From NCBI GenBank assembly GCA_937142855.1, contig CAKZQZ010000031.1, forward strand, positions 2,201 through 66,200: a DNA stretch of 64,000 nucleotides, read 5' to 3'. Positions 17,522-51,449 of this stretch are shown here, piece after piece. A program made the translations under genes and the position numbers. The stretch comes from an uncultured Alphaproteobacteria bacterium. Lineage in GTDB: Bacteria > Pseudomonadota > Alphaproteobacteria > Puniceispirillales > Marisalimonadaceae. Positions within the stretch are counted from its first letter, which is position 1. Each line of letters opens with the position of its first letter. The notes beneath the pieces are model-generated. The model had not been told where the DNA came from. It did no database searches and saw only the letters and a program-made list of their open reading frames with translations.

Positions 17522-18316
17522 TTATAATTTCATCAAATAAGAATAGACTTTTGAGTTGAGTTCTTTAGGTTTTTCAGATTGAAGAAAATGACCACTTTCA
17601 ACCACGTGTGTGTCACATTTTTTTATCAACTGAACAAATTTTAAACCAGATTTTATTGGGGTCATTTGATCATTTCTAGCTAAAACAGCAAGAGCTGGTG
17701 TTTCAATACTTTTAGCAGCTTCTAAACCATCCTTATAATTATTACATGCATGTAAATCATAATTTAAACTCTTTGGCTTGTTCATACCCATGACATTATT
17801 AGCTTCACCATAGTGAGAGTGACCTGGCCAATTGTTTACAGACATATCTCCGTCTATTCCGTGTCCCCATGTCACCATCATATTTGAAGCTTTACGTTCA
17901 TTAGTCAAAGATAAATCCAATAAATATTGATTAACTGGGATTTCATTTGAACCTGCTACAAATATAATGCCACTAAGTATTTCAGGATAAAGTCTATTAA
18001 GTTCTAAGGCTACTAAACATCCTTGAGAATGACCTAAAACAACTAATTTTTTAACCTTCAAATAAATTAATAAGTCATGAATCCAATCAGCATTTTCTTT
18101 TATTGATTTGCAAGGCGTTCCTTCAGATAAACCGTGAGCAGGCATATCAGGTACTATTACAGAATACCCTTTGTAAGCAAAAAATCTTGCCTGTTGAACA
18201 AAACTTAAATGATTTTGACCTGCTCCATGAAGAAAGCATATTGTGGTTTTGCTATTATCTAATTTTTTCCCTCCAGTGCCAACATACGTATCAGCTCCTT
18301 TAAAATTTATTAACAT
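17522..18316 (-). CDS. Alpha/beta hydrolase
   Basis: FLHGAG, DMPAHG, nucleophile GHSQG, acid DQMTP, His GHFL; overlaps the metY stop. Confidence 0.88.
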   Translation of the reverse strand: MLINFKGADTYVGTGGKKLDNSKTTICFLHGAGQNHLSFVQQARFFAYKGYSVIVPDMPAHGLSEGTPCKSIKENADWIHDLLIYLKVKKLVVLGHSQGCLVALELNRLYPEILSGIIFVAGSNEIPVNQYLLDLSLTNERKASNMMVTWGHGIDGDMSVNNWPGHSHYGEANNVMGMNKPKSLNYDLHACNNYKDGLEAAKSIETPALAVLARNDQMTPIKSGLKFVQLIKKCDTHVVESGHFLQSEKPKELNSKVYSYLMKL

Positions 18317-19611
18317 CTAGCACCCAATTTTTTTACAGCTTTAAAACCTTTTTCAAAATCTTTTTTAATATCATTAATATCCTCAAGGCCCACAGAAAGT
18401 CTAATCATATCGTCAGTCAGACCACCTTCTTTCATTGCTTCAGCGCTTAAGTGGGAATGTGTTGTGCTCCCAGGATGAATTAGAAGTGTTTTGGCATCAC
18501 CTACATTTGCAAGGTGTGAAGCTAATTGAACAGACTCAATAAAAACTTGTCCAGCTTCTCGGCCTCCTTTAATACCAAAAACAATTATTGACCCAGAACC
18601 TTTGGGCAATATTTTCTTTGCAACCTCATGGTCTGGATGCGTCTTCAAGTCAGGATGCTTTACCCATGCTACTTCTTCATGGTTTTGAAGAAAATCTAGC
18701 ATTTCATGAGTATTTTCAATATGTTTTTTCATTCTCAATGGTAACGTTTCTATCCCTTGCATAAGGTAAAAAGCATTAGTTGGTGACAAAGAGGGACCAA
18801 AATTATACATTCCCTCAGCTCTTATTTTAGCTATTAAAGCAGAAGGACCAAATTCTTCCCAAAAACTTATTCCACCGAGTGCAAAATGTGGACCTGAAAT
18901 AGTTGGAAATTTATCTCTGTCCCCCCAATCAAAGTTTCCGCCATTGACAACAGCTCCTCCTATAGCAATACCATGTCCACCTAACCATTTTGTTAGAGAA
19001 TGGATCACAATGTTAGCTCCATATTTAAATGGTTGCATCAAATATGGTGTATTAAAAGTGGCATCAAGCACTAGAGGCACATTGTACTTTTTACATATAT
19101 CAGCAATGGTTGGGACATCCATTATATCTAACCCAGGATTTCCTATGACTTCTCCAAAGACCATCTTTGTGTTAGGTTTAATAGCTTTTTCAATTGCTTC
19201 TGGGTCGTTTGGGTTTACAAAATCTGTGTTAACTCCAAATCTCGGCATTGTATGTTGAAGTAAGTTAATATTAGCTCCATACATTTTACTTGAAGCAACA
19301 ATATGATCTCCACTGCTACAAATTGTAGAAACAACTAAATGCATAGCAGCCATACCACTAGAGCAAGCAACTGCGCTTGCACCTCCTTCTAAGGCAGCTA
19401 ATCTTTGTTCTAGTGCTGCAACTGTTGGATTTGAAATTCTTGTATAAAGATGTCCTCCAACCTCCATATTATACAATGAAGCAGCTTCTTCTGTGCTGTT
19501 GAAAACATATGACGTTGTCTGATAAATTGGTACTGCTCGAGATCCAGTTTCTTTATCAGGAATGTGCCCTGCATGCAAAGAGAGTGTATCAAACTTATAA
19601 TTTTCACTCAT
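18310..19611 (-). CDS. metY: O-acetylhomoserine aminocarboxypropyltransferase/sulfhydrylase (MetY family), copy 1
   Basis: LHAG, PIYQTTSYVF, YTRISNPT, HSLTKWLGGHG (PLP Lys), HLANVGDAKTL, IRLSVGLE. Confidence 0.9.
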   Translation of the reverse strand: MSENYKFDTLSLHAGHIPDKETGSRAVPIYQTTSYVFNSTEEAASLYNMEVGGHLYTRISNPTVAALEQRLAALEGGASAVACSSGMAAMHLVVSTICSSGDHIVASSKMYGANINLLQHTMPRFGVNTDFVNPNDPEAIEKAIKPNTKMVFGEVIGNPGLDIMDVPTIADICKKYNVPLVLDATFNTPYLMQPFKYGANIVIHSLTKWLGGHGIAIGGAVVNGGNFDWGDRDKFPTISGPHFALGGISFWEEFGPSALIAKIRAEGMYNFGPSLSPTNAFYLMQGIETLPLRMKKHIENTHEMLDFLQNHEEVAWVKHPDLKTHPDHEVAKKILPKGSGSIIVFGIKGGREAGQVFIESVQLASHLANVGDAKTLLIHPGSTTHSHLSAEAMKEGGLTDDMIRLSVGLEDINDIKKDFEKGFKAVKKLGARC

Positions 19612-24400: not shown

Positions 24401-24859
24401 GCTAGACTTCATACCTCTGGTGATTTTGCTCAAGATTTTTTAAATAAAAATAAAGGTGGAAAGTTAGAGTTTTATTTAGCTCCTCCCCTTTTCTCTCAAA
24501 AAGATCCTGAGACAGGACATTTAAAAAAGAAACGTTTTGGACCTTGGGTTTTTAATGTTTTTAAACTTTTATCTAAATTTAAATTGCTTAGAGGATCTAA
24601 ACTTGATGTCTTTGGATATACTGAAGAGAGAAAAAGAGAGAGAAAATTAATAGATAAAATCTTTTTTACTGTGGATAAAATATCTGAAGTCCTTAATGAA
24701 GAAAATCATAATAAAATTATCGATTTTTTAGATATTCCTTTGTCAATCAAGGGATATGGTCACGTAAAAGAAAAAAATATGGATGAGGCTGAAGCGAAGT
24801 GGGACCCAACACTTGATAAAATTATTAGTAATAATAAATTAAAGAAGTTAGCTAGTTAA
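21416..24859 (+). CDS. Fused indolepyruvate:ferredoxin oxidoreductase family protein (2-oxoacid oxidoreductase, alpha-ferredoxin-beta fusion)
   Basis: SGYPGSPLG, NEELAATA, CAGCPHN, GDGTYAHSG, CEGCGDC..SNC, GIGGTG, YKDEYEVARL, GYGHVK; 1147 aa. Confidence 0.9.
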   Translation: MNFINTIKLDDCFTKDNDLALMNGVQALVRLLIEQAKLDKDNGLSTKGYVSGYPGSPLGTLDLELGRARKHLDLNNIVFQPAVNEELAATAAWGTQMLGLYDRPEIDGVFSMWYGKGPGLDRAMDALRHANMGGVALKGGMVLAVADDPIGKSSTLAYQSEQSLISAGIPVFYPANVDEVIPMGLQAFALSRHAGICVALKITSDTADSNAVIDLSKLRPTFSNLDNPTNVHVNRHDPALDREAALIKRRVPAAKNFIKHNKINKSIFYPEKKKLGIIAVGKAATETMDALDKIGINEPEKSGIGLFACKVPWPLIHDEIKNFSDGFKEILVIEEKASIVEEQVAHILFNSKTRPLLSGKTDGFTNDELVPKVSELSSDIISDCLLKKIIDNNNDFDIPKVKSETLGNNLPPIVSRTPWYCAGCPHNSGTKTPDDEVVGIGIGCHSIGYFLHPEKLTNFSQMGGEGGHWIGRAPFSNQKHTFQNIGDGTYAHSGSLAIRAAVSANVNITFKILYNDAVAMTGGQKAIGGATPWDISKQLSAEGVKKIFVVSDEPEQFRDTRLFADKVGIFHRDELINIQKEVRNITGVTAIIYVQTCATELRRRRKRGFIKDREIKMYINPDVCEGCGDCAEKSNCVAVKPFNHFEGVKRQIDQSVCNKDYSCKKGFCPSFIGVNSVDISQPSKKIFPDLPKSFSNLTNPKPNLRKIKNIIMAGIGGTGISTVAAIIVMAARIDKLYAQSMNFTGLAQKNGAVTSQIRVSREKSLYFRSARLPNETADLLLGCDAVVSVSPSITRTLNPNKTVAIVNGRVEPVGVAGVHIGTVVDDSLLKKHLENHLALENLQFIDISKLAETLVGDTVFANIMMLGIAAQKNLIPININSLQKAIELNGVAVEQNLKAFNWGRLLSEHPQEVFNAAKIDENIDKEKTIDSYNEKFYKTLEHFQDKQYADLFLSKVNKIMNLEKNISKFQKNLPLTRKIALTLFRIMRYKDEYEVARLHTSGDFAQDFLNKNKGGKLEFYLAPPLFSQKDPETGHLKKKRFGPWVFNVFKLLSKFKLLRGSKLDVFGYTEERKRERKLIDKIFFTVDKISEVLNEENHNKIIDFLDIPLSIKGYGHVKEKNMDEAEAKWDPTLDKIISNNKLKKLAS

Positions 24860-26492
24860 TCTCCTTTGTTTTTTCCCTTAACTTAAATTTTTGTATTTTA
24901 CCAGTGCTTGTTTTAGGTAGTTCAGTAAAGACAAAGAAACGCGGCACCTTAAAACCAGCCAGTTGAGCTTTACAATGATTTTTTAATTCTGTTTCATCAA
25001 CCACCGATCCATTGCTAAGCTCTACAAAAGCACATGGCGTCTCTCCCCACTTTTCATCATCTTTAGCAACAACAGCTACAGCAACAACATCAGGGTGCTT
25101 ATATAAAGCATCTTCTACTTCAATAGATGAAATGTTCTCACCTCCAGAAATTATAATGTCTTTTGATCTATCTTTAAGTTGTATGTAGCCATCTTCATGC
25201 CAAACACCAAGGTCACCTGTATGAAACCAGCCTCCTTCAAATGCCTCATTGGTAGCTTTTTTGTTTTTAAAATATCCTTTCATCGTGATGTTTCCTTTTA
25301 CAAGCACTTCACCTAAAGTACTTCCATCTTTAGGAACATCTTTGTTTGTTTTGGTATCTATAATCTTCATATTCTCTTGAACAGAATAGACCACTCCCTG
25401 TCTAGCTTTGAGTTTTGCCTGTTCGGATGCTTCTAACTCACTCCATTCAGGGTGCCAGGCACATACGACGGCAGGCCCATAAATTTCGGTTAATCCATAA
25501 ACATGAATTACTTCTATTCCACATGAGGCCATTTTGCTTAACACAGCTTCAGGAGGAGGAGCTCCAGCTGTCATCATTTTAATTTCTGTTTTAAGAGAAA
25601 TATTATTTTGTATTAGATAATCTGCAACCATTTGCATAACTATTGGCGCTCCACATAAATGAGTAATTTTATGTTTTTGGAAAGCTTTAACAATTTCTTC
25701 TCCTGATGGCTGTCTGAGGCATACATGAGTTCCTGCTCTTTCTGTAATTGTCCATGGAAAGCACCAACCGTTGCAATGAAACATTGGTAAAGTCCATAAA
25801 TATTTGGAATGCATAGGAAGGTCCCATGTAAGAGTGTTGCCAATGGCGTTTAAATATGCACCTCGGTGATGATAAACCACACCTTTTGGATTTCCCGTAG
25901 TTCCAGATGTGTAATTTAAGGCTATTGAATTCCATTCATCATCAGGCAAAGTATGTTCTATTTTAATATTAATGAGTTTTTGTATTTCTGTTTCATAGTC
26001 CAAACAATTATGTTGATTAGCAAAATCAGACCTTTTATTTCCTGCGATTTTATCGACGAATTCTACTAAAATTGGAGGGTTGGGTAGGCTTTCAAAAGCT
26101 TTTTCAACTATCAAACTATATTCAGAATCATAAATAAATAACTTAGCTTCGCCATGATCAAGAATAAAATTAACTGTTTTACTGTCTAGTCTTGTATTAA
26201 TGGCATTTAAAACACAGCTAACCTTAGGTATTCCAAAATGGCATTCCCACATTACAGGAATGTTGGGGAGCATTACAGCGACAGTAGATCCATGATGAAT
26301 ATTTTTTTGTTTTACAAAGTTTGCCAAAGCGTCGCAACGAGCGGAGGCTTGTTCATAATTAATTTTATAGTCTTTATATTCTATAGCTATTTGGTTTGGA
26401 TAAGTTTTCCTTGTTCTTTCAAGAAATGATAAGGGACTTAAAGCTGCAAAATTAGCTTGATTTTTAATTAAACCATCTTCAGATATAGTCAT
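24852..26492 (-). CDS. Acyl-CoA synthetase, DmdB (MMPA-CoA ligase)-like clade
   Basis: ANFAALSPLSFLER, LNAINTRLD, NYTSGTTGNPKGVVYHHRGAYL, WTLPMFHCNGW. ATG 26492 with AGGAGG RBS. Resembles the recalled SAR11 DmdB. Confidence 0.8.
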   Translation of the reverse strand: MTISEDGLIKNQANFAALSPLSFLERTRKTYPNQIAIEYKDYKINYEQASARCDALANFVKQKNIHHGSTVAVMLPNIPVMWECHFGIPKVSCVLNAINTRLDSKTVNFILDHGEAKLFIYDSEYSLIVEKAFESLPNPPILVEFVDKIAGNKRSDFANQHNCLDYETEIQKLINIKIEHTLPDDEWNSIALNYTSGTTGNPKGVVYHHRGAYLNAIGNTLTWDLPMHSKYLWTLPMFHCNGWCFPWTITERAGTHVCLRQPSGEEIVKAFQKHKITHLCGAPIVMQMVADYLIQNNISLKTEIKMMTAGAPPPEAVLSKMASCGIEVIHVYGLTEIYGPAVVCAWHPEWSELEASEQAKLKARQGVVYSVQENMKIIDTKTNKDVPKDGSTLGEVLVKGNITMKGYFKNKKATNEAFEGGWFHTGDLGVWHEDGYIQLKDRSKDIIISGGENISSIEVEDALYKHPDVVAVAVVAKDDEKWGETPCAFVELSNGSVVDETELKNHCKAQLAGFKVPRFFVFTELPKTSTGKIQKFKLREKTKEIN

Positions 26493-26567
26493 AGTTGCTT
26501 TCCTCCTATTATTATTCATAATAGTAAGGCTAAGTTTTATCAACTATGAAAAAATCCGGAGTTTAGA

Positions 26568-28277
26568 ATGGCTTACATGTCTCCATTACAGGATACAAAA
26601 TTTGTTTTAGAAAATCTTTTACCTCCTCATATAGATCTAGATGATTCTACCATAGAAGCTGTTCTATCAGAGGCTGGTAAGTTGGCTGATAATCATTTGG
26701 CTCCACTGAATCACTTTGGTGATAAAAATAACCCAGTTCTTAGACAAGATAATGAAGTTCAAACTCCAGAAGGGTTTAGTGAGGCTTTTTCAAGAATTGC
26801 AGAAGGCGGCTGGATTGGTGTTGCTAGTGAAACCGATTATGAAGGAATGGGTCTTCCAGGAAGAATGAGTGCCGCCATTAATGAATATTGGCACGGCGCC
26901 AACATGTCTTTTGCGTTATGTAGCCTTCTAACTCAAGGCTTAATTGATGCCTTTACTTTGGTAGGAACTGATGAAGAAAAGAAAACATACCTGCCAAAAT
27001 TTAATTCTGGCGCCTGGACAGGAACTATGAATTTAACAGAACCTCAATCTGGGACAGACTTGGCAACTATAAAAACAAAGGCAAAACACGATGGTCAGAA
27101 CTGGAGAATACAAGGACAAAAAATTTATATTACATATGGTGAACATGATATGTCTGAAAATATTATTCACCTTGTTCTTGCAAGAACTGAAGGAGCACCT
27201 GAGGGTATTAAAGGAATATCGACTTTTATAATACCTAAATATTTAAAAGATGAAAATGGTAACTACACTATAAGAAATGATCTTAAATGCATTTCGATTG
27301 AACATAAAATGGGAATAAAGGCAAGCCCAACTGCTGTTATGTCCTATGGTGAAAATGAAGGCGCTATTGGTTATATGTTAGGAGAAGAAGGTCGCGGCAT
27401 TGAGTACATGTTCATAATGATGAATAGAGCAAGATTTGATGTTGGTCTTCAAGGAATGGCGATATCAGAGGCGGCACGTCAAAAAGCCCTAGAATATGCT
27501 AATACCAGAATACAAGGCACTCCTATTAATAGAGTTAAAGGTACGCCTATTATTGGGCATGGAGACGTAAAAAGACTACTTTTATCAATGAGAAGCCTGA
27601 CTGAAGCAATGAGAGCTTTAATATTAGTTTCCTCCGAAATAATGGAAAGAGCTCATTCTGGAAATGACAACTGTAAAATGAAAGAAGGTTTTTTAATTCC
27701 AATCATAAAAGGATGGTCTACCGAATTGGCTCAAGAAGTTACAAGTAACGGTGTACAAATTCATGGCGGTATGGGCTTTATTGAAGAAACTGGAGCTGCT
27801 CAATACATGCGGGATGCAAGAATTCTTCCTATTTATGAGGGTACTAACGCCATTCAGGCTAATGATTTCATGTTTAGGAAAACTATAAGAGATAATGGAG
27901 AAATTGCTCAACAGATTGTTAATGAGATAAATGTAGATTGTAAAGATAACAATGAGATGAAAGATGCTATAAATTTGGCATCAGAAACTTTAGATTTCAT
28001 TCTCGAAAATAGGGATGATCACGAGATGCTTTCATGTGTTAGCTTTGATTATTTAATGGGTTTTGGTTATCTAATAGGTGGCTGGTTAATGAATAAAGCA
28101 AAATTGAAAGCTCAAGAAAAAATATTAAAAAATTCTAAGGACCAAACCTTTTTAAAAAGTAAAGTTTTATCGTCTGAATTTTATGACCTACATATACTCC
28201 CTCGAATACAAACTCACTTTAAAATTGTTCTGAAAGGAGCGAAAGTAGTTAAATCCTCAAATGATTCTTTTGTTTAA
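26568..28277 (+). CDS. dmdC: Acyl-CoA dehydrogenase, DmdC (MMPA-CoA dehydrogenase) family
   Basis: GTMNLTEPQSGTDL, ITYGEHDMSENIIHLVLAR, EHKMGIKASPT, QIHGGMGFIEETG, PIYEGTNAIQANDF; GGAG RBS; divergent from the DmdB-like ligase. Confidence 0.75.
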   Translation: MAYMSPLQDTKFVLENLLPPHIDLDDSTIEAVLSEAGKLADNHLAPLNHFGDKNNPVLRQDNEVQTPEGFSEAFSRIAEGGWIGVASETDYEGMGLPGRMSAAINEYWHGANMSFALCSLLTQGLIDAFTLVGTDEEKKTYLPKFNSGAWTGTMNLTEPQSGTDLATIKTKAKHDGQNWRIQGQKIYITYGEHDMSENIIHLVLARTEGAPEGIKGISTFIIPKYLKDENGNYTIRNDLKCISIEHKMGIKASPTAVMSYGENEGAIGYMLGEEGRGIEYMFIMMNRARFDVGLQGMAISEAARQKALEYANTRIQGTPINRVKGTPIIGHGDVKRLLLSMRSLTEAMRALILVSSEIMERAHSGNDNCKMKEGFLIPIIKGWSTELAQEVTSNGVQIHGGMGFIEETGAAQYMRDARILPIYEGTNAIQANDFMFRKTIRDNGEIAQQIVNEINVDCKDNNEMKDAINLASETLDFILENRDDHEMLSCVSFDYLMGFGYLIGGWLMNKAKLKAQEKILKNSKDQTFLKSKVLSSEFYDLHILPRIQTHFKIVLKGAKVVKSSNDSFV

Positions 28278-40015: not shown

Positions 40016-40021
40016 ATAAAA

Positions 40022-41194: not shown

Positions 41195-41222
41195 TTTAGC
41201 TTCCTCCAAGATTATGCATATT

Positions 41223-42302: not shown

Positions 42303-42326
42303 TATTTAATTGTTCCTTTTTAAAAT

Positions 42327-43469: not shown

Positions 43470-43500
43470 TTTTACCTCATATTGGCTAAATTAATAGACA

Positions 43501-45102
43501 TTAAATTTTATTAGACTTCAATATCATTTCTGATGCTTTTTCAGCAATCATTAAAGTAGGTGCATTTGTGTTGCCAGAAGTAATTGTTGGCATTATAGAA
43601 GCGTCAGCAATCCTTAAACCCTCCACACCTCTAACCTTTAAATTACTATCAGTCACTGATGAGACATTTGTTCCCATAGCACAAGTCCCAACAGGGTGAA
43701 AAATTGTTGTTCCTATATCACCTGCTACTTTTTTTAAATCATCTTCAGATTGAAATTGAATTCCTGGAGCATACTCTTTTGGGTTATATTTTTTCATTGC
43801 TGGTTGAGAAATTATTTTTCTTGCCAACTTTATAGATTGAGCGGCTACAATTTTATCTTTTTCTGTAGATAAATAATTAGGATCAATTGATGGTGCAATT
43901 TTATAATCCTTAGACACTATATGAACATTGCCTCTACTTTGAGGGTTAAGGTTGCAAACACTTGCAGTTAAACCAGGAAAATTATGGAGTGGCTCTCCAA
44001 ACTTGTCTAATGATAATGGCTGAACATGAAACTGAAGATTAGGTGTCTCATGAGACTTATCTGACATTGCAAATAAGCCTAACTGACTAGGAGCCATAGA
44101 CATTGGACCTGTTCTCTTAAGAGCATATTCTAGACCAATTCCTAATTTACCAATAAATGAGTTTGCTTTTTGATTTAATGTTTTTGCGTTTTCTAACTCA
44201 TAAATTACTCTTAATTGAAGATGATCTTGAAGATTTTCTCCAATGTTTTTACTTTCTACTTCAGTATCAATACCTAATTTTGACAAAATGTTGGGATTTC
44301 CAATACCAGATAATTCTAATATTTTGGGAGACCCAATAGACCCTGAAGATAATATAATTTCTCTATTAACATATATTTCTTCTGATTTACCATTCCTAAA
44401 AACTTTTACGCCTTTAGCTTTTTTGTTTTTTAAAATTATTTTGCTGACTTCGCATTTACTTATTACCCTTAAATTTTTTCTATTTTTAACAGGCTTTAAA
44501 AATGCTTTAACAGTATTCCATCTTAACCCATCATTTTGATTAACTTTAAAGTATGAAACACCAAAATTATTTCCTTCATTAAAATCATCTACTTGAGGTA
44601 TCCCAGCTTCTATGGTTGCTTCTTTAAAACTATCTAACACTTCCCAAGATAGTCTTTGCTGATTTACTTTCCATTCACCTCCAGAACCATGGAATTTATT
44701 TTCTCCTTCATAACTATCTTCCATATTTTTGAAATATGGTAAAACATCATCCCAACTCCAACCTTCATTGCCCATTTGTCGCCACTGGTCATAATCATTC
44801 GCTTGTCCTCTCATATAAATCATTCCATTTATAGAAGAACAACCTCCCATAACTTTTCCTCTTGGATAGTTTAATTCTCTTCCGTTGAGTCCCTTCTGTT
44901 TAGTTGTTTTATATAGCCAATCTGTCCTTTTGTTACCCATGCAATATAAGTAACCCACTGGTATATGTACCCAATGATAGTTATCGCTTCCACCTGCTTC
45001 AAGTAAAGCTACAGTATATTTACCATTTGCCGATAACCGATTCGCTAAAAGACATCCTGCAGTACCCGCTCCAACTATTATAAAATCAAATTGTAGGGAC
45101 AT
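43501..45102 (-). CDS. GMC oxidoreductase (choline dehydrogenase-like; resembles 3-hydroxypropionate dehydrogenase HpdH)
   Basis: GAGTAG, HIPVGYLYC, PRGKVMGGCSSINGMIYMRGQ, HPVGTCAMG, GNTNAPT. Confidence 0.85.
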   Translation of the reverse strand: MSLQFDFIIVGAGTAGCLLANRLSANGKYTVALLEAGGSDNYHWVHIPVGYLYCMGNKRTDWLYKTTKQKGLNGRELNYPRGKVMGGCSSINGMIYMRGQANDYDQWRQMGNEGWSWDDVLPYFKNMEDSYEGENKFHGSGGEWKVNQQRLSWEVLDSFKEATIEAGIPQVDDFNEGNNFGVSYFKVNQNDGLRWNTVKAFLKPVKNRKNLRVISKCEVSKIILKNKKAKGVKVFRNGKSEEIYVNREIILSSGSIGSPKILELSGIGNPNILSKLGIDTEVESKNIGENLQDHLQLRVIYELENAKTLNQKANSFIGKLGIGLEYALKRTGPMSMAPSQLGLFAMSDKSHETPNLQFHVQPLSLDKFGEPLHNFPGLTASVCNLNPQSRGNVHIVSKDYKIAPSIDPNYLSTEKDKIVAAQSIKLARKIISQPAMKKYNPKEYAPGIQFQSEDDLKKVAGDIGTTIFHPVGTCAMGTNVSSVTDSNLKVRGVEGLRIADASIMPTITSGNTNAPTLMIAEKASEMILKSNKI

Positions 45103-45246
45103 AAAAAATTCCTTTTTAAAATTCTTCCAATAACGAGAATATTATTAAATTATGATATTTGATCTAGGAAATATTTACTATGTTAAAAATAAATTTTTAA
45201 ATTTTTTCTTTGGGCAGTATAGAGTGTCTCTTGAAAGGTAAAAATC

Positions 45247-47052
45247 ATGAGTATATCAAGTAATGCATTTGAAGATGAAGATATTTTTATTGCAGATATT
45301 TTATCTAAAAATAAAATAATAGCTATGGTTGGGGCTAGTAAGAATTGGAAACGCCCCTCTAACTTTGTCATGAAATATCTTCAGAAACATGGGTACACAG
45401 TTATACCTATAAACCCTGGTAATGCAGGTCAATATATTCTGGATGAATTATGCTATGCATCCCTTCAAGATGTACCTATTAAAATAGATATGGTTAATAT
45501 ATTCAGACCTAGTGAGTTTTGTGCTTCGATTACTAAAGATGCAATAAGTATTGGTGCTAAAACTGTTTGGATGCAATTAGGTATTAAAAACGAAGAAGCT
45601 ATTAATTTAGGCAAAAAAGCAAAAATAAATGTTATTTATGATAAATGTCCAAAAATGGAACATTCAAGGTTATCTGGCGCACTTGGATTAGCTGGCTTTA
45701 ATTCACGATTAATTTCTTCAAAAAGACCTGTTGTTAAAAAACCACCATCAGCTTCAAGAAATGGAGGAATTGTAAAAACTAATGAATTAGAAACACTTGC
45801 TATACATGCAGGAACTAGACCTGATGCCTCAACTGGATCAAGAAGTATTCCAATTTATCAAACAACTTCTTTTACATTTGATGATATAGATCATGCAGCA
45901 AGCTTATTTAACCTTCAAGAACCAGGAAATATTTATGCTCGATTGTCTAATCCTACAATTTCTGCTCTAGAACAAAGAATAGCAGCTTTAGATGATGGCT
46001 TAGGCGCCTGCTGCGCCTCATCTGGGCATGCCGCACAAATGCTAGCTTTATTTCCTTTAATGGAGCCTGGGGCAAAAATAATTGCTAGTTCTAAATTATA
46101 TGGGGGTTCTATTACTCAATTTACTAAAACATTTAAAAACTTCTCTTGGGATGCTGAATTAGTTGATGTGTCTGATTTAGATGCTGTTAAGGATGCTGTT
46201 AAAGATGTTTCTGTAAAAGTTTTATTTGCTGAAAGTTTAGCTAACCCTGACGGAAATATAACCGATATTACATCTCTTGCAGATATAGCTCATGAAGCTG
46301 GTATTCCACTTGTAATTGATAACACAATGGCAACACAAATTTTATGTCAACCTGGAAAATTTGGAGCTGATTTAATTGTTTACTCAACAACAAAATTTTT
46401 ATCAGGACATGGAAACGCAATGGGTGGAGCTGTTGTAGATATGGGAAACTTTCCTTGGGATAAGGGTAGAGTATTTTCAAAACTAACAACTCCCGATTCT
46501 TCCTATCATGACATTAATTTTTATGAAAGTTTTGGAAACCATGCATTTATCAATTATTGCCATGCAAGTGTACTAAGAGATCTAGGATCAACAATGGCTC
46601 CTTTAAATGCATATTTAACGCTAATCGGTTTAGAAACTCTTCCGTTAAGAATGAAACAACACATGAAAAACGCGGAACTAGTTGCCAATTTTCTTAAAGA
46701 CCATCCAAAGGTAAATTACGTGTCTTGGGCAGGCTTTAAAGAAAATATTTATCATGAATTAGCAAAAAAATATTTTAAAGATGGGTTTGGTTCAGTTTTT
46801 ACATTTTCTGTAAATAGTGGATATGAAGGAGCCATAAAATTAGTAGAAAATTGCAACTTAATATCTCATCTTGCAAACGTAGGTGATACTAGGTCATTGA
46901 TTGTACATCCTGCATCAACGACACATAGACAACTGAATAATGAACAAAAAGAAAAATCTGGAGTTAGTGACTCTATAATTCGTTTGTCAATTGGACTAGA
47001 AAGTCATAAGGATATTATCGGTGACTTAGAAGGGGCTTTATCCAAAATATAA
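45247..47052 (+). CDS. metY: Fusion: YccU-like CoA-binding domain + O-acetylhomoserine sulfhydrylase (MetY family), copy 2
   Basis: N-terminal IAMVGAS..RPS..VM.YL..GY.VIPINP...WMQLG...CPKMEH, then a linker, then AIHAG, PIYQTTSF, YARLSNPT, YSTTKFLSGHG, HLANVGD, IRLSIGLE in one 601-aa frame. Confidence 0.88.
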   Translation: MSISSNAFEDEDIFIADILSKNKIIAMVGASKNWKRPSNFVMKYLQKHGYTVIPINPGNAGQYILDELCYASLQDVPIKIDMVNIFRPSEFCASITKDAISIGAKTVWMQLGIKNEEAINLGKKAKINVIYDKCPKMEHSRLSGALGLAGFNSRLISSKRPVVKKPPSASRNGGIVKTNELETLAIHAGTRPDASTGSRSIPIYQTTSFTFDDIDHAASLFNLQEPGNIYARLSNPTISALEQRIAALDDGLGACCASSGHAAQMLALFPLMEPGAKIIASSKLYGGSITQFTKTFKNFSWDAELVDVSDLDAVKDAVKDVSVKVLFAESLANPDGNITDITSLADIAHEAGIPLVIDNTMATQILCQPGKFGADLIVYSTTKFLSGHGNAMGGAVVDMGNFPWDKGRVFSKLTTPDSSYHDINFYESFGNHAFINYCHASVLRDLGSTMAPLNAYLTLIGLETLPLRMKQHMKNAELVANFLKDHPKVNYVSWAGFKENIYHELAKKYFKDGFGSVFTFSVNSGYEGAIKLVENCNLISHLANVGDTRSLIVHPASTTHRQLNNEQKEKSGVSDSIIRLSIGLESHKDIIGDLEGALSKI

Positions 47053-47182
47053 ATTAGATACTAACTTTCTAACTTTTTAAACATATTATTACCGCCAGAA
47101 ATGCTGGGCTTACTTTGCACTTGTTATAGCTAACTTATAATTATATAAAATTATTGTATTAATAATTTTAAGGAGCTTAATC

Positions 47183-48538
47183 ATGGACGGATTATGTTGT
47201 GGCCCAGGTTACGCTAGCCCCTCTGAAGCTATTAAAGCGCCCAGAGAAAAATTATTATATACCATAGCAATTTATACTGGGACTGGAATTCAAAAACCAG
47301 ACTATCTTGCTACTATTGATATAGATCCAGATAGTCCAAATTATTCAAAAGTTATTCATAGACTTGAAATGCCTGGCATTGGAGATGAACTTCATCATAT
47401 GGGTTGGAATGCATGTTCTTCATGTCATAATGATGAAAAAATGAGTCGTAAATACTTACTAGTACCTGGCGTTCGTTCTAATAATATATATGTAGTTGAT
47501 ACTGCCACTAATCCTATGTCACCAAGTATTTATAAAATAATTGATGGATCTGAAATTAAATCTAAAACTAATCTTTCAGGACCACATACAGTTCATTGTT
47601 TAGGGTCTGAAATTATTATTTCTTTTCTTGGAGATGCTAAAGGGGAAGCACCAGGAGGGTATTTGCATCTGAATAAAGATTTTGAAATTGTAGGTCGTTG
47701 GGAAAAATCTATGGGAAATATCCCTTTTAGTTATGACTTTTGGTACCAGCCACGCCATAACGTTATGATTAGTTCAGAATGGGCGGCACCAAACACTTTT
47801 ATGCCAGGATTTGATCTAGAAGAAGTTGGGCACTTAAAATATGGCCGTCGATTACATATTTGGGACTTTGAAAAGAAAAAACCAATTGAAACAATGTATT
47901 TAGGTGAGGATGGGCTTATACCGCTTGAAGTTAAGTTTTTACATAACCCTAATAGTAGCCATGGATTTTGTGGTGCCGCCCTAAGCACAAATGTAATTCA
48001 TTTCTGGAAATCTGAAGAAGGAAAATGGGAATGGGAAAAAATCATTGATGTCGATAATGAACCCCACCCAGATTGGCCAATTCCTATACCTGGTGTAATG
48101 TCGGCGATTTTAGTTTCAATGGACGACAAATATCTTTATATAAACAACTGGCTTCATGGTGATTTACGCCAATATAATATTTCTGATCCTCATAAACCTA
48201 TTCTAACTGGACAGATATGGATGGGCGGTCTTTTAGATAAAGCCCCTATTGTAAATGGAGTAAAAATTGCGGGTGGTCCACAAATGTATCAATTATCCTT
48301 AGATGGTAAGAGAATGTACGTAACAACCTCTCTTTTCTCAACATGGGATAATCAATTTTATCCAGAAATTCGTACTCAGGGTGGCGTTATGCTCATGATT
48401 GACTGTGACGTAGAAAATGGAGGCATGAAAATTAATGAGGATTTTGTTGTTGATTTTGGAAAAGAACCTAATGGACCCAGCAGATGTCACGAAAGCCGTT
48501 ACCCAGGAGGCGATTGTACAAGTGATATTTGGTTATGA
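47183..48538 (+). CDS. Selenium-binding protein SBP56/SELENBP1-like (methanethiol oxidase family), cytoplasmic
   Basis: CCGPGYASP, DYLATID.DP.SP, DELHHMGWNACSSC, HTVH, YDFWYQPRHNVMISSEW, NWLHGD, GGPQM, STWDNQFYP, RYPGGDCTSDIW; AAGGAG RBS; no signal peptide. Confidence 0.92.
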   Translation: MDGLCCGPGYASPSEAIKAPREKLLYTIAIYTGTGIQKPDYLATIDIDPDSPNYSKVIHRLEMPGIGDELHHMGWNACSSCHNDEKMSRKYLLVPGVRSNNIYVVDTATNPMSPSIYKIIDGSEIKSKTNLSGPHTVHCLGSEIIISFLGDAKGEAPGGYLHLNKDFEIVGRWEKSMGNIPFSYDFWYQPRHNVMISSEWAAPNTFMPGFDLEEVGHLKYGRRLHIWDFEKKKPIETMYLGEDGLIPLEVKFLHNPNSSHGFCGAALSTNVIHFWKSEEGKWEWEKIIDVDNEPHPDWPIPIPGVMSAILVSMDDKYLYINNWLHGDLRQYNISDPHKPILTGQIWMGGLLDKAPIVNGVKIAGGPQMYQLSLDGKRMYVTTSLFSTWDNQFYPEIRTQGGVMLMIDCDVENGGMKINEDFVVDFGKEPNGPSRCHESRYPGGDCTSDIWL

Positions 48539-48900
48539 ATAAAATTACGATTGCTAATCGTGACAATAATTTTTTTAAAGTTAAAGGATCAAAACCTTTA
48601 CTCCATGAATTACGTGCCCAAGGACTTGATCTACCATACGGTTGTCAGTATGGTGGTTGCATAACGTGTGCTGCCAAACTTATAAAAGGTGAAGTTGACC
48701 AACGATCTCAAGTTGCTCTTAATAATAGACAAATAAATGACGGTTATGTAATTTTATGTGTGGCTCGCGCTAAAACTGATTGCACTTTCGAAATTGGCGT
48801 TGAAAGTCATGACAAGCTCTATCGTAATCCCTTTATAGACCCCCTTGCTTCTCATGAATTAAAAGCCAATATCGCAACCAAGAAGGATGTTAAGTCATGA
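48535..48900 (+). CDS. Plant-type [2Fe-2S] ferredoxin with C-terminal extension
   Basis: LPYGCQYGGCITC (CX4CX2C) and ILCVAR. ATG 48535 overlaps the SBP56 TGA (ATGA). Confidence 0.88.
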   Translation: MNKITIANRDNNFFKVKGSKPLLHELRAQGLDLPYGCQYGGCITCAAKLIKGEVDQRSQVALNNRQINDGYVILCVARAKTDCTFEIGVESHDKLYRNPFIDPLASHELKANIATKKDVKS

Positions 48901-49355
48901 ACTTTATGAATCATAATGAAGCTTACGATGATGATTATTTACAAGACATCCTTAGCTCAGTTAAAACTATTGCGATGGTTGGAGCTAGCCCAGATAAAAC
49001 AAAATTTAGTTATGGGGTACTCCGCGTTTTAAGTGAAACTGGTTATGATATGATACCAGTCAACCCAAAACCAAACCTTCATGAAATCAGGAATCTAAAA
49101 GTTTATCCAAATCTAAAGGCTATTGATAGACCTGTCGATATGGTTGAAGTTTTTCGAAAATCTGAGGATTTATATAACGTTACTGAAGATGCTATAGCTA
49201 TCAACGCTAAAGTTATATGGGCACAAATTGGTGTTATTGACCATAATGCTGCAAAGCTTGCAGAGAAAGCTGGTTTAAAGGTAGTTATGAACCGATGTCC
49301 AAAAATTGAACTCTTTCGACCTTTTTGGAAACCTCGACTTGATCTTAAAATCTAA
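48897..49355 (+). CDS. CoA-binding protein (YccU family)
   Basis: TIAMVGASP, MIPVNP, DMVEVFRKS, WAQIGV, MNRCPKIE; ATGA overlap with the ferredoxin stop. Confidence 0.88.
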   Translation: MNFMNHNEAYDDDYLQDILSSVKTIAMVGASPDKTKFSYGVLRVLSETGYDMIPVNPKPNLHEIRNLKVYPNLKAIDRPVDMVEVFRKSEDLYNVTEDAIAINAKVIWAQIGVIDHNAAKLAEKAGLKVVMNRCPKIELFRPFWKPRLDLKI

Positions 49356-49360
49356 ATTTT

Positions 49361-50140
49361 TTATTCATTCCAATTCGGATGTCTTTTATCTAAAAATGCA
49401 CTAATACCCTCATGAGCATCTATCTCCATCATATTAGCAGTCATTACTTCAGAGGTATAATTATAGGCCTCATTGATTGGCATTTCAACCTGCCTGTAAA
49501 AAGCTTCCTTGCCAATTTTTACTGTAGAAACTGGCTTAGATGCTATTAATTTTGCTAGTTGCATTGTCTTATTATGCAGTTGCTCTAGAGGGACAGAATG
49601 ATTTATTAAGCCATATTGAACTGCATCATCAGCATTAAGTTTTTCACCAGTCAAAAGCATTTCCATTATTTTCTTTCTACTAATATTTCTAGAAACAGCA
49701 ACCATAGGCGTTGAACAAAAAAGACCTATATTAACACCTGGTGTCATAAAAGAAGATTGTTCTGATGCTACCGCTAGATCACAGCTAGCAACTAACTGAC
49801 AACCTGCTGCTGCTGCAATTCCAGATACTTCTGCTATAACTGGTTGCGACAAGGTCATTATAGTTTGCATTAAATTTGAACATTCATTAAATAATGTTTT
49901 AAAAAAGTCTTTGTTTTTTTTATTCTGTCTTAATTCTTCTAGATCATGACCTGCTGAAAAACCTGGGCCCTCAGAAGAAATAATTAATACCCTCACTTTA
50001 TCTATTGATGATATTTGTTTTAAAGATTTTATTAGAGCTCTTATTAACTCTAGTGATAATGGATTGTACTTTTTTCCATTTGTTAGCTCAATTCTGACTA
50101 TATGATCCGTTTCATTGATTATAGTAAAAAGATTGTGCAT
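49361..50140 (-). CDS. Enoyl-CoA hydratase (crotonase family)
   Basis: FSAGHDL, AAAGCQLVASCDLA, TPGVNIGLFCSTP, EGISAFL.KR.P.W. Confidence 0.88.
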   Translation of the reverse strand: MHNLFTIINETDHIVRIELTNGKKYNPLSLELIRALIKSLKQISSIDKVRVLIISSEGPGFSAGHDLEELRQNKKNKDFFKTLFNECSNLMQTIMTLSQPVIAEVSGIAAAAGCQLVASCDLAVASEQSSFMTPGVNIGLFCSTPMVAVSRNISRKKIMEMLLTGEKLNADDAVQYGLINHSVPLEQLHNKTMQLAKLIASKPVSTVKIGKEAFYRQVEMPINEAYNYTSEVMTANMMEIDAHEGISAFLDKRHPNWNE

Positions 50141-50270
50141 CTATTTTTCTCATATTAATATAATATGTATATAAGAAACATTTTTTAAATTTTGGTCAAT
50201 AAATAATCTTAATTGATTATTTAGCTCATATTTTAAAGATTAGTTCATGTAATGGAAAAAATAAAATTTG

Positions 50271-51449
50271 ATGCAAAAATTTAATTTTAAAGTATTAATT
50301 TTAATTGTAACTGGAGCTGCTGCATTAGCTTTGGCAGTTGGAATTGGAAGATTTGCTTACACTCCTATTCTACCTTACATGTTAGAAGAATTAAATATGA
50401 GCAAGACTATTGGGGGTCTAATTGCCTCGTGGAATTTCTTTGGTTATTTGTGTGGTTCATTATTATCAATCCTTTCAATTTTTAAAAAAAGAGTAAAGTT
50501 AGTTTTCTTTATCTCTATTGTTGTTTCCTTAATAACGACACTACTTATGGGCTTACATGACAATATAAATTTTTTTATAATAGTTCGTTTCTTAAGTGGT
50601 CTATCCAGCGCTTTTGTTTTAATTTTTGGCACATCATTAATACTTCCTTCAATACAGGCTTTTGGGAAAAAATCTTTAAGTACTGCACATTTTATGGGCG
50701 TTGGGTTTGGAATTGTTTTATCCTCAATTATAGTATCTATTCTAGGTATCCTTGGTTATGAGTGGAACGAGCTATGGATAGGCGTAACAATTTTATCAAT
50801 AATTTTAGCTATCCCTATTTTTGTTTTTACACCTGATGAATCAATTATAAGTACAACTAATAAAACCTCTAGTCTTCATAGTAATTTTGGGTTTAGTTTA
50901 ATAACCTTATCTTATGGGTTATATGGTTTTGGTTATGTTGTTCTGGGAACTTTTATTTCAGCTATGGCTAGGGAAACTGCTGGTTTGGAAACAACTGAAA
51001 TATACGTTTGGTTGTTAGTTGGATTAACAGGGATACCAATGGTTATTTTTTGGCCTTGGTTTGGTAAAAAAATAGGTAATGATTTAGCTCTTTTTTTAGC
51101 TTGTGCTATAATGGGATTAGGGATTTTAATGCCCGTAATATTGGAAAATAAATTTGGTATTACTCTAGCATCTATTCTTCTTGGTTCAACTTTTATACCA
51201 ATAACTGCATTAGCTCTTTTAGAGGGCCAATCCAGATATAAAGGATCTATAAGAGTTTCTACAGCAATATTAACTTCTGCTTTTAGTTTAGGCCAAATGG
51301 TTGGCCCTTACTTTGGTGGAGTGATGATAGATTTATTTTCATCTTATAAGATTGCTTTATTGATATCATCAATCTCGCTTTTAGTTGCTTCACTATTAAT
51401 GATAAATCCTATAAGGGTATTTCCAAAAAAATTTACAAATACTCCTTAA
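50271..51449 (+). CDS. MFS transporter, YbfB/YjiJ family
   Basis: AVGIGRFAYTPILPYM, GVGFGI, YGLYGFGY, GQMVGP; twelve TM pattern. Confidence 0.85.
   Translation: MQKFNFKVLILIVTGAAALALAVGIGRFAYTPILPYMLEELNMSKTIGGLIASWNFFGYLCGSLLSILSIFKKRVKLVFFISIVVSLITTLLMGLHDNINFFIIVRFLSGLSSAFVLIFGTSLILPSIQAFGKKSLSTAHFMGVGFGIVLSSIIVSILGILGYEWNELWIGVTILSIILAIPIFVFTPDESIISTTNKTSSLHSNFGFSLITLSYGLYGFGYVVLGTFISAMARETAGLETTEIYVWLLVGLTGIPMVIFWPWFGKKIGNDLALFLACAIMGLGILMPVILENKFGITLASILLGSTFIPITALALLEGQSRYKGSIRVSTAILTSAFSLGQMVGPYFGGVMIDLFSSYKIALLISSISLLVASLLMINPIRVFPKKFTNTP

Follow-up and report, generated by a model that had tools for sequence, protein, structure and literature searches.

We propose, at a probability of about 0.55, that a 4.9-kb stretch of a marine SAR116 genome carries two separately mobile sulfur modules in one variable site, and that both act on the known methanethiol node, probably partly in series. 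The first module would be a YccU-MetY fusion serving as an accessory PLP-dependent O-acylhomoserine sulfhydrylase. The second would comprise a cytoplasmic SELENBP1-type, copper-dependent methanethiol oxidase together with the [2Fe-2S] ferredoxin and the YccU-type CoA-binding protein that constantly accompany it. Both appear to be lodged between an ECHDC3-like crotonase and a GMC oxidoreductase, inside a conserved acyl-CoA catabolic run. A gene predicted to burn methanethiol here adjoins one that may build it into amino acids, in a bacterium that seems unable to use sulfate.

Gene layout of the locus

The DNA comes from an uncultured Alphaproteobacteria bacterium (Puniceispirillales; Marisalimonadaceae; assembly GCA_937142855.1). 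The whole analysed stretch, hereafter the window, is 64,000 nt long and covers positions 2,201–66,200 of the forward strand of contig CAKZQZ010000031.1; the part at issue occupies window positions 45247–50140. The relevant features are as follows, with the basis of assignment in brackets.

18310..19611, minus strand: second MetY paralogue, unfused, PRK08134 type, core in the genus
24852..26543, minus strand: acyl-CoA ligase of family PRK08162, previously described as DmdB-like
26568..28277, plus strand: DmdC-type long acyl-CoA dehydrogenase with a PF12806 C-terminal domain (Pfam; PDB)
43501..45102, minus strand: GMC flavoprotein, heading a GMC-ACAD-HIBCH-thiolase-rhodanese run (39713-45102)
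45247..47052, plus strand: YccU(CoA-binding)-MetY fusion, 601 aa (Pfam and NCBIfam)
47053..47182: spacer between fusion and SBP56, 130 bp
47183..48538, plus strand: SBP56, 451 aa (Pfam SBP56, 677 bits)
48529..48900, plus strand: plant-type [2Fe-2S] ferredoxin, overlapping the end of SBP56 by 10 nt (Pfam and NCBIfam)
48897..49355, plus strand: free-standing YccU2 (CoA_binding_2), overlapping the ferredoxin by 4 nt (Pfam)
49361..50140, minus strand: ECHDC3-like crotonase (ECH_1; NCBIfam PRK08139), convergent with YccU2 at 5 bp
50268..51449, plus strand: MFS_4 (YbfB-like) transporter, divergent from the crotonase, a neighbour kept across the family

Every gene lies where the preliminary description had placed it, with the fusion and SBP56 on the same strand and exactly 130 bp apart. 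The two YccU paralogues said to bracket the pair are indeed the sole PF13380 proteins of the genome, and are ~38–40% identical. The chance of such an adjacency is ~0.3%, given one oxidase gene, three MetY paralogues and ~2,200 genes. The 130-bp spacer contains an AGGAG ribosome-binding site and a promoter-like TTTGCA-16-TATAAT (47114–47141), which suggests separate transcription of the fusion and SBP56, a point against the reading preferred here; no terminator was detected in it. Such promoter-like sites occur across the region no more often than in shuffled sequences. The -35/-10-like stretch is kept in the window and in genomes G051, G021 and L001, and the spacer of G006 and G022 is 180 bp long and diverged.

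The oxidase triad and the YccU-MetY fusion

SBP56 is predicted from its sequence to be a cytoplasmic, copper-dependent methanethiol oxidase of the SELENBP1 type. It shares fold family, cytoplasmic location and length class with human SELENBP1 and with RdMTO (RD1_2378) of Roseobacter denitrificans, whose methanethiol-oxidase activity and residues are established (PMC10936201, PMC13603461). Every key residue reported for these enzymes is kept: the cysteine pair C5/C6, H71/H72, the CSSC motif at 78–81, H135/H138 (HxxH), D185, E249 and the C-terminal C445, all of them important in the Roseobacter protein (PMC13603461). Identity is 87–98% across SAR116, SAR11, Rhodobacteraceae and gammaproteobacteria, and 87–89% to the Roseobacter homologues. 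The MtoX enzymes of Hyphomicrobium sp. VS and Ruegeria pomeroyi (SPOA0269; PMC5739008) would have the substrate in common with SBP56 but are distant superfamily members, and SBP56 reaches only 152.7 bits on the MtoX model, whose cut-off is 650. MtoX is periplasmic, carries a signal peptide and clusters with SCO1/SenC and MauG, whereas a signal peptide and SCO1/MauG neighbours were looked for in the case of SBP56 and found absent.

The ferredoxin follows SBP56 in 80 of 80 related loci and is an obligate partner of the oxidase; YccU is third in the triad at 78 of the 80, which is every locus whose flank extends that far. The best solved relatives of YccU2 are the CoA-binding proteins 2duw and 2d59. 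It belongs to a different YccU clade from the N-terminal domain of the fusion, whose own clade includes an additional free YccU encoded in half of the SAR11 oxidase operons. The RdMTO and SELENBP1 papers treat the enzyme alone, whereas SBP56 in the window has ferredoxin and YccU partners, of which the cited methanethiol-oxidase literature makes no mention. A plain oxidase reaction gives the ferredoxin and both YccU units no explanation, which counts against the reading preferred here.

The fusion starts with a CoA_binding_2 domain (residues 24–139, nt 45316–45663; Pfam, 127 bits), joined by a linker of ~40 residues to a Cys_Met_Meta_PP domain (residues 182–598, nt 45790–47040; Pfam, 392 bits). 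It scores 552.7 on TIGR01326 (cut-off 495), the solved structures closest to it are those of the OAH sulfhydrylases 7kb0 and 8sf5 (~427 bits), and its MetY domain has the S-x-T-K PLP motif; judged by these features, it is a genuine O-acylhomoserine sulfhydrylase, the third and accessory MetY paralogue of the genome. An assembly artefact is ruled out because more than 110 clusters, at 59–94% identity, have the same domain architecture. The C-terminal 420 residues match a full OAH/OAS sulfhydrylase such as SAR11_1030 (PMC5069961), from which the fusion differs in its added N-terminal YccU CoA-binding domain and in being an accessory third paralogue, not a core gene; in contrast to SAR11 metY, no SAM riboswitch was detected in a search upstream of it, which counts against our reading. 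It is accepted that MetY-family enzymes capture methanethiol or sulfide (PMC7157515, PMC5069961). In another lineage a homocysteine S-methyltransferase follows the fusion, which fits a sulfide-using, homocysteine-forming role. Against our reading, SBP56 was near the fusion in none of nine contexts outside the family.

No NIR_SIR or PAPS_reduct family gene was found in the genome, which is estimated to be 100% complete, so the bacterium, apparently lacking assimilatory sulfate reduction, would depend on reduced sulfur. MetA is present and O-acylhomoserine should thus be available. In the working model, methanethiol would come from DMSP demethylation or methionine breakdown. The oxidase would turn it into formaldehyde and sulfide or sulfane sulfur, as shown for the Roseobacter orthologue, and MetY, by its family-level activity, would join sulfide to O-acylhomoserine to give homocysteine ('reassembly') or, alternatively, convert methanethiol into methionine ('direct capture'). 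These steps would place both modules on one known metabolic node, probably at least partly in series. Work in Ruegeria has established both (Wirth et al. 2020, PMC7157515); in that form, the branch-point idea is already published. The Ruegeria study and a SAR116 pangenome prediction (PMC12262181) describe the same fates, methanethiol to methionine or via sulfide to homocysteine, but no physical clustering of both enzymes; in the window they are neighbours, an arrangement of a subclade only. Since the sulfate-assimilation genes are absent, a serial route from the oxidase through sulfide to homocysteine is no less likely than a partition. The earlier branch-point proposal is partly supported: the kinds of enzyme that it names are upheld, on the RdMTO residues and the MetY family, and candidates for DMSP demethylation occur in the genome (below).

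A variable site in the family

The region between the crotonase and the GMC-led acyl-CoA operon was compared across 66 genomes of the family, and four states were found.

Empty: G013, G046, G034, G047 (crotonase directly upstream of GMC, same strand)
Fusion only: G001, G004, G020, G025, G055, G057, G012-C101
Fusion and triad: G000, G021, G051, G022, G006
Triad only: G009, L001

The fusion is present in ~24 of the 66 genomes and SBP56 in 35; they occur together in eight, against ~13 expected if independent, and are adjacent in five, from two genera. The phyletic patterns show no dependence between them, which also weighs against our reading. L001, a close, near-identical strain, has deleted the fusion: what it keeps, the 5' end of GMC and ~45 nt from the start of the fusion ORF, runs straight into the SBP56 leader. 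The adjacency is an insertion at a variable site, and is recent, subclade-confined and dispensable. The conserved linkage across relatives expected in the preliminary description fails beyond this small subclade, and a conserved operon or regulatory unit is refuted by the four site states together with the deletion. At this site, the triads of the window, G012-C97, G051 and G021 cluster as a single clade (support 1.0). G009 has a divergent triad there, which may mean that the site was used repeatedly, and G025 carries its triad elsewhere in the chromosome.

The crotonase and alternative readings

The crotonase, found in 55 of the 66 genomes, is a core gene of the family that forms one edge of the variable site. 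It scores 365 bits on NF006008 (cut-off 313) and matches human ECHDC3 (2vx2) with 234 bits, against 128 bits for AcuH (5xzd). With ECHDC3 and the M. smegmatis homologue 3MYB it shares the NCBIfam family PRK08139 and the motifs GHDL, AAGCQLVASCD and TPGVN(I/V)GLFCSTP. To our knowledge, these two are crotonase-fold proteins without known function, and we know of no member whose substrate has been established. His65 and four cysteines are invariant in the family. AcuH of Roseovarius nubinhibens and DmdD (PMC5651017, PMC6850173) share the crotonase fold and, in other lineages, comparable neighbouring genes (an oxidase, a ligase and a DmdA-family gene), but the window crotonase carries Gln115 and Gly135 in place of Glu112 and Glu132, both essential for catalysis in AcuH (PMC5651017). 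The Q/G signature occurs in 63 of 63 linked homologues. The earlier suggestion that the crotonase stands in for DmdD/AcuH is not borne out, and an ordinary hydratase of this type is ruled out by the ECHDC3-type match and the absence of both glutamates. The crotonase also occurs in many genomes with neither oxidase nor fusion.

A genome search for dmdA, dmdD and acuH, advised in the preliminary description, yielded a DmdA-like candidate on contig C17 (380 bits, cut-off 410) and a canonical AcuH/ECHS1-type hydratase on C90; a DmdB-like candidate lies on C25/C84 (782, cut-off 822). Of the DmdB/DmdC-like pair reported at 24.8–28.3 kb, the DmdC-like member stands, with DmdC 6IJC as best PDB match (413 bits over the full length; PMC6850173), and the other is the PRK08162 ligase, with 289 bits against 822 on the DmdB model. 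This ligase is of the family (49% identity) that follows the crotonase in roseobacter-type clusters, together with a DmdA paralogue; the roseobacter supercluster also holds rhodanese and persulfide dioxygenase. Members of the crotonase family are linked with the triad across several orders, in differing arrangements (SAR11 40/40, Rhodobacteraceae 10/16, other alphaproteobacteria 2/3, gammaproteobacteria 2/2). This company suggests a putative unconventional thiol-releasing enzyme, and a role of crotonase and ligase in organosulfur acyl-CoA metabolism by a non-canonical mechanism is plausible. The papers cited here make no mention of a link between bacterial ECHDC3-type crotonases and SELENBP1-type oxidases.

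The preliminary description had envisaged a dedicated locus partitioning methanethiol between assimilation by MetY and detoxification by SBP56, with the crotonase as a methylthioacryloyl-CoA hydratase fed by the DmdB/DmdC-like pair. Co-orientation of the adjacent genes in all five genomes, their bracketing by YccU units, the fusion-type YccU in SAR11 operons, the DmdC-like gene and the co-clustering of crotonase and ligase families with the oxidase elsewhere all agree with it. We nevertheless consider it unlikely, as most genomes with one or both genes lack the adjacency, a close strain has lost the fusion, the crotonase is ECHDC3-like and devoid of the essential glutamates, a canonical hydratase is encoded on C90, and C25/C84 offers a much better DmdB. 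Improbable too, on gene neighbourhood as its sole basis, is a crotonase that frees a thiol, methanethiol or sulfide, from an acyl-CoA carrying sulfur, either by addition-elimination on methylthioacryloyl-CoA or by retro-Michael elimination from 3-methylthiopropionyl-CoA or 3-mercaptopropionyl-CoA to acryloyl-CoA. Such release would explain the attraction of both triad and fusion. The postulate of an enzyme for this step in SAR11, from which DmdD is absent (PMC5069961), the triad linkage, the roseobacter supercluster and the invariant His65 and cysteines are consistent with it. The crotonase is moreover linked to the fusion in all fusion-bearing SAR116-family genomes examined and on the unrelated contig L111, and in 'empty' genomes it comes first in an operon that also encodes an acryloyl-CoA-reductase-like ACAD, a HIBCH-like hydrolase, the GMC enzyme and rhodanese. 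Against it stand the two missing glutamates and the many genomes without oxidase or fusion; its GH(D/N)L motif, presumably resembling that of crotonase-fold decarboxylases such as E. coli methylmalonyl-CoA decarboxylase, makes a decarboxylase or proofreading role equally possible.

Two coincidental neighbours at a permissive site, the fusion for general sulfide assimilation and the oxidase for detoxification or energy gain, without interplay, make a rather doubtful reading. The four site states, the lack of positive co-occurrence, the unrelated contexts of the fusion outside the family and the displaced triad of G025 are as it would predict. Several observations speak against coincidence: both modules handle one small sulfur pool in an organism dependent on reduced sulfur, each has a YccU paralogue, the divergent triad of G009 points to possible repeated use of the site, and the gene next to the site belongs to the very crotonase family found with the triad in other orders.

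Organization of the locus and its enzymes

The window lies on contig C31 of a SAR116-type genome (G000; 2.32 Mb, about 33% G+C), which among public records comes closest to SAR116 MAGs and Candidatus Levibacter; Candidatus Levibacter sp. Uisw_134_01 (L002) carries the same locus. The preliminary description had placed a MetY fusion and an SBP56 operon in the same orientation, 130 bp apart, bracketed by YccU units and facing a crotonase gene, and every detail of this arrangement was confirmed.

Genes of the locus
45247-47052, plus strand: YccU-MetY fusion, 601 aa, with a YccU-type CoA_binding_2 domain (residues 24-139) and an O-acylhomoserine sulfhydrylase domain (residues 182-598)
47183-48538, plus strand: SBP56 oxidase, 451 aa, after a 130-bp gap
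48529-48900, plus strand: plant-type [2Fe-2S] ferredoxin, overlapping the SBP56 gene by 10 nt
48897-49355, plus strand: free YccU protein (YccU2), overlapping the ferredoxin gene by 4 nt
49361-50140, minus strand: crotonase, convergent, 5 bp from YccU2

The genome encodes no PF13380 proteins besides the two YccU units. A search for a terminator between the fusion and SBP56 found none; a promoter-like site at 47114-47141 lies in the 130-bp gap and is only suggestive, as such sites were no commoner than in shuffles. Rfam families, SAM riboswitches included, were looked for upstream of the fusion and across the rest of the window, and none was detected. Solved close homologues were available for every domain.

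The fusion exceeds the TIGR01326 cut-off (552.7 bits versus 495.1), and it carries the PLP-lysine motif STTKFLSGHG; the solved structures nearest to its C-terminal domain are O-acetylhomoserine sulfhydrylases. The fusion architecture is real and widespread, occurring in more than 110 clusters at 59-94% identity. Two more MetY paralogues, both unfused, are encoded in the genome (18310-19611 in the window and another on contig C56), which makes the fusion an accessory third copy. MetX was not found in the genome; a MetA/HTS gene (C39:24625-25515, 371 bits) indicates that an O-acylhomoserine donor exists.

The oxidase contains a full-length SBP56 domain (PF05694, 677 bits, residues 5-451 on profile positions 2-453). 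Its copper-site residues H71/H72, H135/H138, D185 and E249, together with the C-terminal C445, are kept and correspond, at a constant offset of -4 or -3, to His75/76, His139/142, Asp189, Glu253 and Cys448 of RdMTO (numbering of PMC13603461); it also carries Cys5/6 and CSSC at 78-81, the residue set of RdMTO and human SELENBP1 (PMC13603461). RdMTO of Roseobacter denitrificans is a proven copper-dependent methanethiol oxidase, and the copper-dependent reaction, in which methanethiol yields formaldehyde, sulfide and peroxide, has been demonstrated for RdMTO and SELENBP1 only (PMC13603461); whether RdMTO forms sulfide or sulfane sulfur is in dispute (PMC10936201, PMC13603461). These sequence features assign the window protein to the eukaryote-like, cytoplasmic SELENBP1 type, in contrast to the periplasmic MtoX type (PMC5739008). 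Against the MtoX clade model (NF052453) it reaches 152.7 bits, the cut-off being 650; its N-terminus (MDGLCCGPGY) contains no signal peptide, and neither SCO1 nor MauG is among the neighbours, the adjoining genes coding for the ferredoxin and YccU. Homologues 87-98% identical to the oxidase occur in SAR116, SAR11, Rhodobacteraceae, Hyphomicrobiales and gammaproteobacteria. Among the SELENBP1-type loci examined (the best 80 of about 600), the ferredoxin gene directly follows the oxidase gene in 80 of 80, and YccU2 comes third in 78, that is, in all whose flank extends that far.

A variable site between the GMC and crotonase genes

The adjacency of the two modules was surveyed in all 66 family genomes, representing four genera; many of these are incomplete single-cell or metagenome assemblies, and absences are accordingly soft. 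SBP56 is present in 35 of the 66, the fusion in about 24, and the two together in 8, versus about 13 expected if the two were independent. The fusion adjoins the oxidase in five of these eight. Outside the family, the pair was present in none of 78 other oxidase loci and none of 9 other fusion contexts. The flanks are the same family-wide, with rhodanese, thiolase, HIBCH, ACAD and GMC genes on one side and crotonase, MFS, kinase, SDR and ACAD genes on the other, while the content of the site between GMC (43501-45102 in the window) and crotonase varies. The SBP56-ferredoxin-YccU2 genes (47183-49355) are referred to below as the triad.

Occupancy of the GMC-crotonase site in family genomes (G), one relative's contig (L001) and one named contig (C101)
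Empty, crotonase directly upstream of GMC on the same strand: G013, G034, G046, G047
Fusion only, in four genera: G001, G004, G020, G025, G055, G057, G012-C101
Fusion and triad, the window's subclade: G000, G021, G051, G022, G006
Triad only: G009, L001

L001 is a 3-kb contig (C97 of G012) whose SBP56 is 98% identical to that of the window. When its positions 1-575 are compared with window positions 44826-45304 and 47074-47182, the GMC 5' end and the first approximately 45 nt of the fusion ORF are seen to run directly into the SBP56 leader. A very close strain has thus cleanly lost the whole fusion by natural deletion and kept the triad. The G012 MAG also holds a fusion-only version of the locus on C101; the presence of both alleles indicates that the bin mixes strains.

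One clade, with support of 1.0, unites the triads of the window, G012-C97, G051 and G021, and that of G022 is nearest to it. The G009 triad (L103 7581-10541) occupies the same GMC-crotonase site and is divergent, with 75-77% DNA identity to all others; no fusion remnant was found at that site, and this triad may have inserted there independently. A SAR11 origin for it was considered and not adopted, as tree support reached only 0.49 and the identities were flat (75-77%).

The preliminary description had named the lack of conserved linkage across relatives as an outcome that would speak against a methanethiol branch-point locus. The linkage is indeed largely unconserved, as judged from the five of eight family genomes, the absence from the other oxidase loci and fusion contexts, and the deletion allele, which makes the adjacency a recent, dispensable juxtaposition of two cassettes. 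The side-by-side arrangement is thus specific to a lineage and not a conserved branch-point operon, and a conserved functional MetY-oxidase gene pair is ruled out because adjacency is not kept and a deletion allele exists. The oxidase module of SAR116 and its accessory CoA-domain-fused homocysteine/methionine synthase behave as cassettes that are gained and lost separately at one site, and natural strain variants with both, either or neither of them can be compared directly.

Fate of methanethiol sulfur

The flow of DMSP sulfur in surface seawater has methanethiol as its hub, and the way in which cells divide this compound between biomass and oxidation affects sulfur-gas emission. Methanethiol can be captured directly into methionine, or oxidized to sulfide that is converted to homocysteine by the same kind of sulfhydrylase, as established with flux measurements in Ruegeria (PMC7157515); the idea of capture versus oxidation has already been applied to SAR116 (PMC12262181) and SAR11 (PMC5069961). 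With both routes published and the enzymes of known kinds, the locus adds no new pathway. The earlier interpretation, that the locus partitions methanethiol between assimilation and detoxification, is partly supported: the kinds of enzymes stand, the conserved branch-point operon does not.

Genes for assimilatory sulfate reduction were searched for in G000 (estimated 100% complete), and neither PF01507 (PAPS/APS reductase or CysD) nor PF01077 (sulfite reductase) was found, while control matches for the two families were obtained in 14 of 14 and 11 of 14 genomes. Like SAR11, this bacterium apparently cannot assimilate sulfate, which implies that all the sulfur of its cysteine, iron-sulfur clusters and homocysteine would have to be taken up in reduced form. 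In G000, only the oxidase offers an evident route from methanethiol to sulfide. In a lineage with a 63% identical fusion, a homocysteine S-methyltransferase gene (PF02574) directly follows the fusion on the same strand (L108 8001-10756 and L109 89-2844), which suggests that the fusion family makes homocysteine, with sulfide as the substrate. Given the missing sulfate genes, the oxidase as sole evident sulfide source and this neighbour, a serial route from oxidase through sulfide to homocysteine appears no less likely than a pure branch point, and both may operate. The lack of sulfate-assimilation genes also suggests that the oxidase is probably an assimilatory enzyme here, not only a detoxifier. 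At two other loci (L110 and L116), an ABC transporter with a sulfate/molybdate-type binding protein precedes the fusion.

The ECHDC3-like crotonase and its neighbours

The crotonase had been proposed as a stand-in for DmdD/AcuH, acting on methylthioacryloyl-CoA made by a DmdB/DmdC-like pair in the window; it is not one in any conventional sense. It scores above the NF006008 (PRK08139) cut-off (365 bits versus 313), and among solved structures human ECHDC3 (2vx2, 234 bits) comes closest, followed by a mycobacterial homologue (3myb, 217 bits), with AcuH (5xzd) at 128 bits; the GHDL, GCQL and TPGVN motifs are common to human ECHDC3. Hydratases of the DmdD/AcuH kind have two catalytic glutamates (Glu112/Glu132 in AcuH, corresponding to Glu144/Glu164 in rat ECH), and mutation of either abolishes AcuH activity (PMC5651017). 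In the alignment with 5XZD, they are replaced by Gln115 and Gly135 in the crotonase; human ECHDC3 (2VX2) likewise has Gln/Gly, and the Q/G signature with a GH(D/N)L motif is present in 63 of 63 triad- or fusion-linked homologues (the window crotonase and 62 others). The catalytic residues and nearest relatives rule out a DmdD/AcuH orthologue. No DmdD was identifiable among its 45 PDB matches at E<=1e-20, which bear generic names only. The only crotonase of the genome with both glutamates is a canonical AcuH/ECHS1-type hydratase on contig C90.

The genome search for dmdA, dmdD and acuH thus yielded the AcuH/ECHS1-type enzyme and a DmdA-like gene below the cut-off (C17:59244-60344, 380 bits versus 410) that adjoins a methylenetetrahydrofolate-reductase-like gene; for DmdD, no candidate in the genome stood out. 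The best DmdB candidates, C25:674-2308 and C84:7495-8596 (782 bits versus the NF005426 cut-off of 822), are about 95% identical; the contig of one is 2.4 kb long, and the other is truncated at the edge of its contig. They are most likely strain variants of one gene, not a true duplication. The window ligase at 24852-26543 had been called DmdB-like, an assignment rejected by its NCBIfam scores (289 bits versus 822 for DmdB; 824 bits for PRK08162) and PDB relatives; the gene is partly rehabilitated, as its PRK08162 family clusters with the oxidase in roseobacters. The adjacent gene at 26568-28277 is DmdC-like as described: it encodes a long ACAD with a PF12806 C-domain (59.8 bits) and is predicted to be DmdC, its closest solved relative being DmdC 6IJC (413 bits over residues 3-562).

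The crotonase recurs beside the triad far beyond the family. The counts are not phylogenetically independent within SAR11 or Rhodobacteraceae, and the independent evidence lies in the varied arrangements across orders.

Crotonase beside the triad
SAR11: upstream and co-oriented in 40 of 40 determinable loci
Rhodobacteraceae: downstream and co-oriented in 10 of 16
Other alphaproteobacteria: downstream and co-oriented in 2 of 3
Gammaproteobacteria: adjacent in 2 of 2, upstream and divergent in one, downstream in the other

The roseobacter-type order is SBP56-ferredoxin-YccU-(rhodanese)-(Blh-like persulfide dioxygenase)-crotonase-acyl-CoA ligase-DmdA-like (L065 8001-14265 and L047 8001-15197; also L054, L068, L074 and L077). 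Its ligase belongs to PRK08162 (792-831 bits) and is 49% identical to the window ligase. The DmdA paralogue scores 366-384 bits, under the cut-off of 410, and was rejected as the true dmdA since a better-scoring DmdA lies elsewhere in five of six genomes; the paralogue may therefore use a different methylated sulfur compound. Throughout the SAR116 family the crotonase is the constant neighbour of the fusion, and the two recur on an unrelated contig, 3 kb apart, with a fusion that is 62% identical. In SAR11, about half of the operons contain a second free YccU, which groups with the N-domain of the fusion and not with YccU2. In the empty-site genomes (L101, L102, L104, L105), the crotonase leads a co-oriented crotonase-GMC-ACAD-HIBCH-thiolase-rhodanese run, the counterparts of window genes at 39713-45102 and 49361-50140, with an ACAD that resembles acryloyl-CoA reductase; that an acyl-CoA operon should close with a rhodanese gene hints that its substrate carries sulfur.

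The recurrent partnership of a SELENBP1-type oxidase, ferredoxin, YccU and ECHDC3-like crotonase is the part worth following. A crotonase family orthologous to human ECHDC3 and lacking the canonical catalytic residues recurs beside the oxidase in SAR11, roseobacters and gammaproteobacteria, and in roseobacters acyl-CoA ligases of one specific family and a DmdA paralogue join this company. Judged from such neighbourhoods, a parsimonious reading is that the crotonase would release a thiol from a sulfur-bearing acyl-CoA, either by addition-elimination on methylthioacryloyl-CoA or by retro-Michael elimination from 3-methylthiopropionyl-CoA. A decarboxylase-type role is an equal alternative; the GHD motif is reminiscent of E. 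coli methylmalonyl-CoA decarboxylase. The family has 80 invariant or nearly invariant positions, including an invariant His65 in GH(D/N)L, and four such cysteines (C87, C114, C120 and C142).

Thiol release extends to a wider proposal, to which we give a little under one chance in five: ECHDC3-family crotonases could be the missing methanethiol/sulfide releasers of organosulfur acyl-CoA catabolism, including the DmdD substitute postulated for SAR11, working by a glutamate-independent mechanism and feeding the SELENBP1-type oxidase and/or YccU-MetY. As ECHDC3 and SELENBP1 are both conserved from bacteria to humans, their pairing could explain how mammalian methionine transamination, through 3-methylthiopropionyl-CoA and methanethiol, feeds SELENBP1, and would assign a function to human ECHDC3. 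The family is a testable candidate for the methanethiol-releasing step of SAR11. In the literature searched, ECHDC3 and SELENBP1 appeared together only in expression lists, nothing useful was found on YccU, and the cassette behaviour, the assimilatory oxidase and the crotonase partnership were all absent.

One SAR11 locus (L015 2373-7166) has EgtB-like (FGE-sulfatase and DinB_2) and EgtD-like (Methyltransf_33) genes upstream of its crotonase-SBP56 operon, together with genes for a further methyltransferase and a Rieske oxygenase and a small ORF that resembles a kinase. These genes look like a set for thiol-histidines of the ergothioneine/ovothiol type, placed beside a thiol oxidase.
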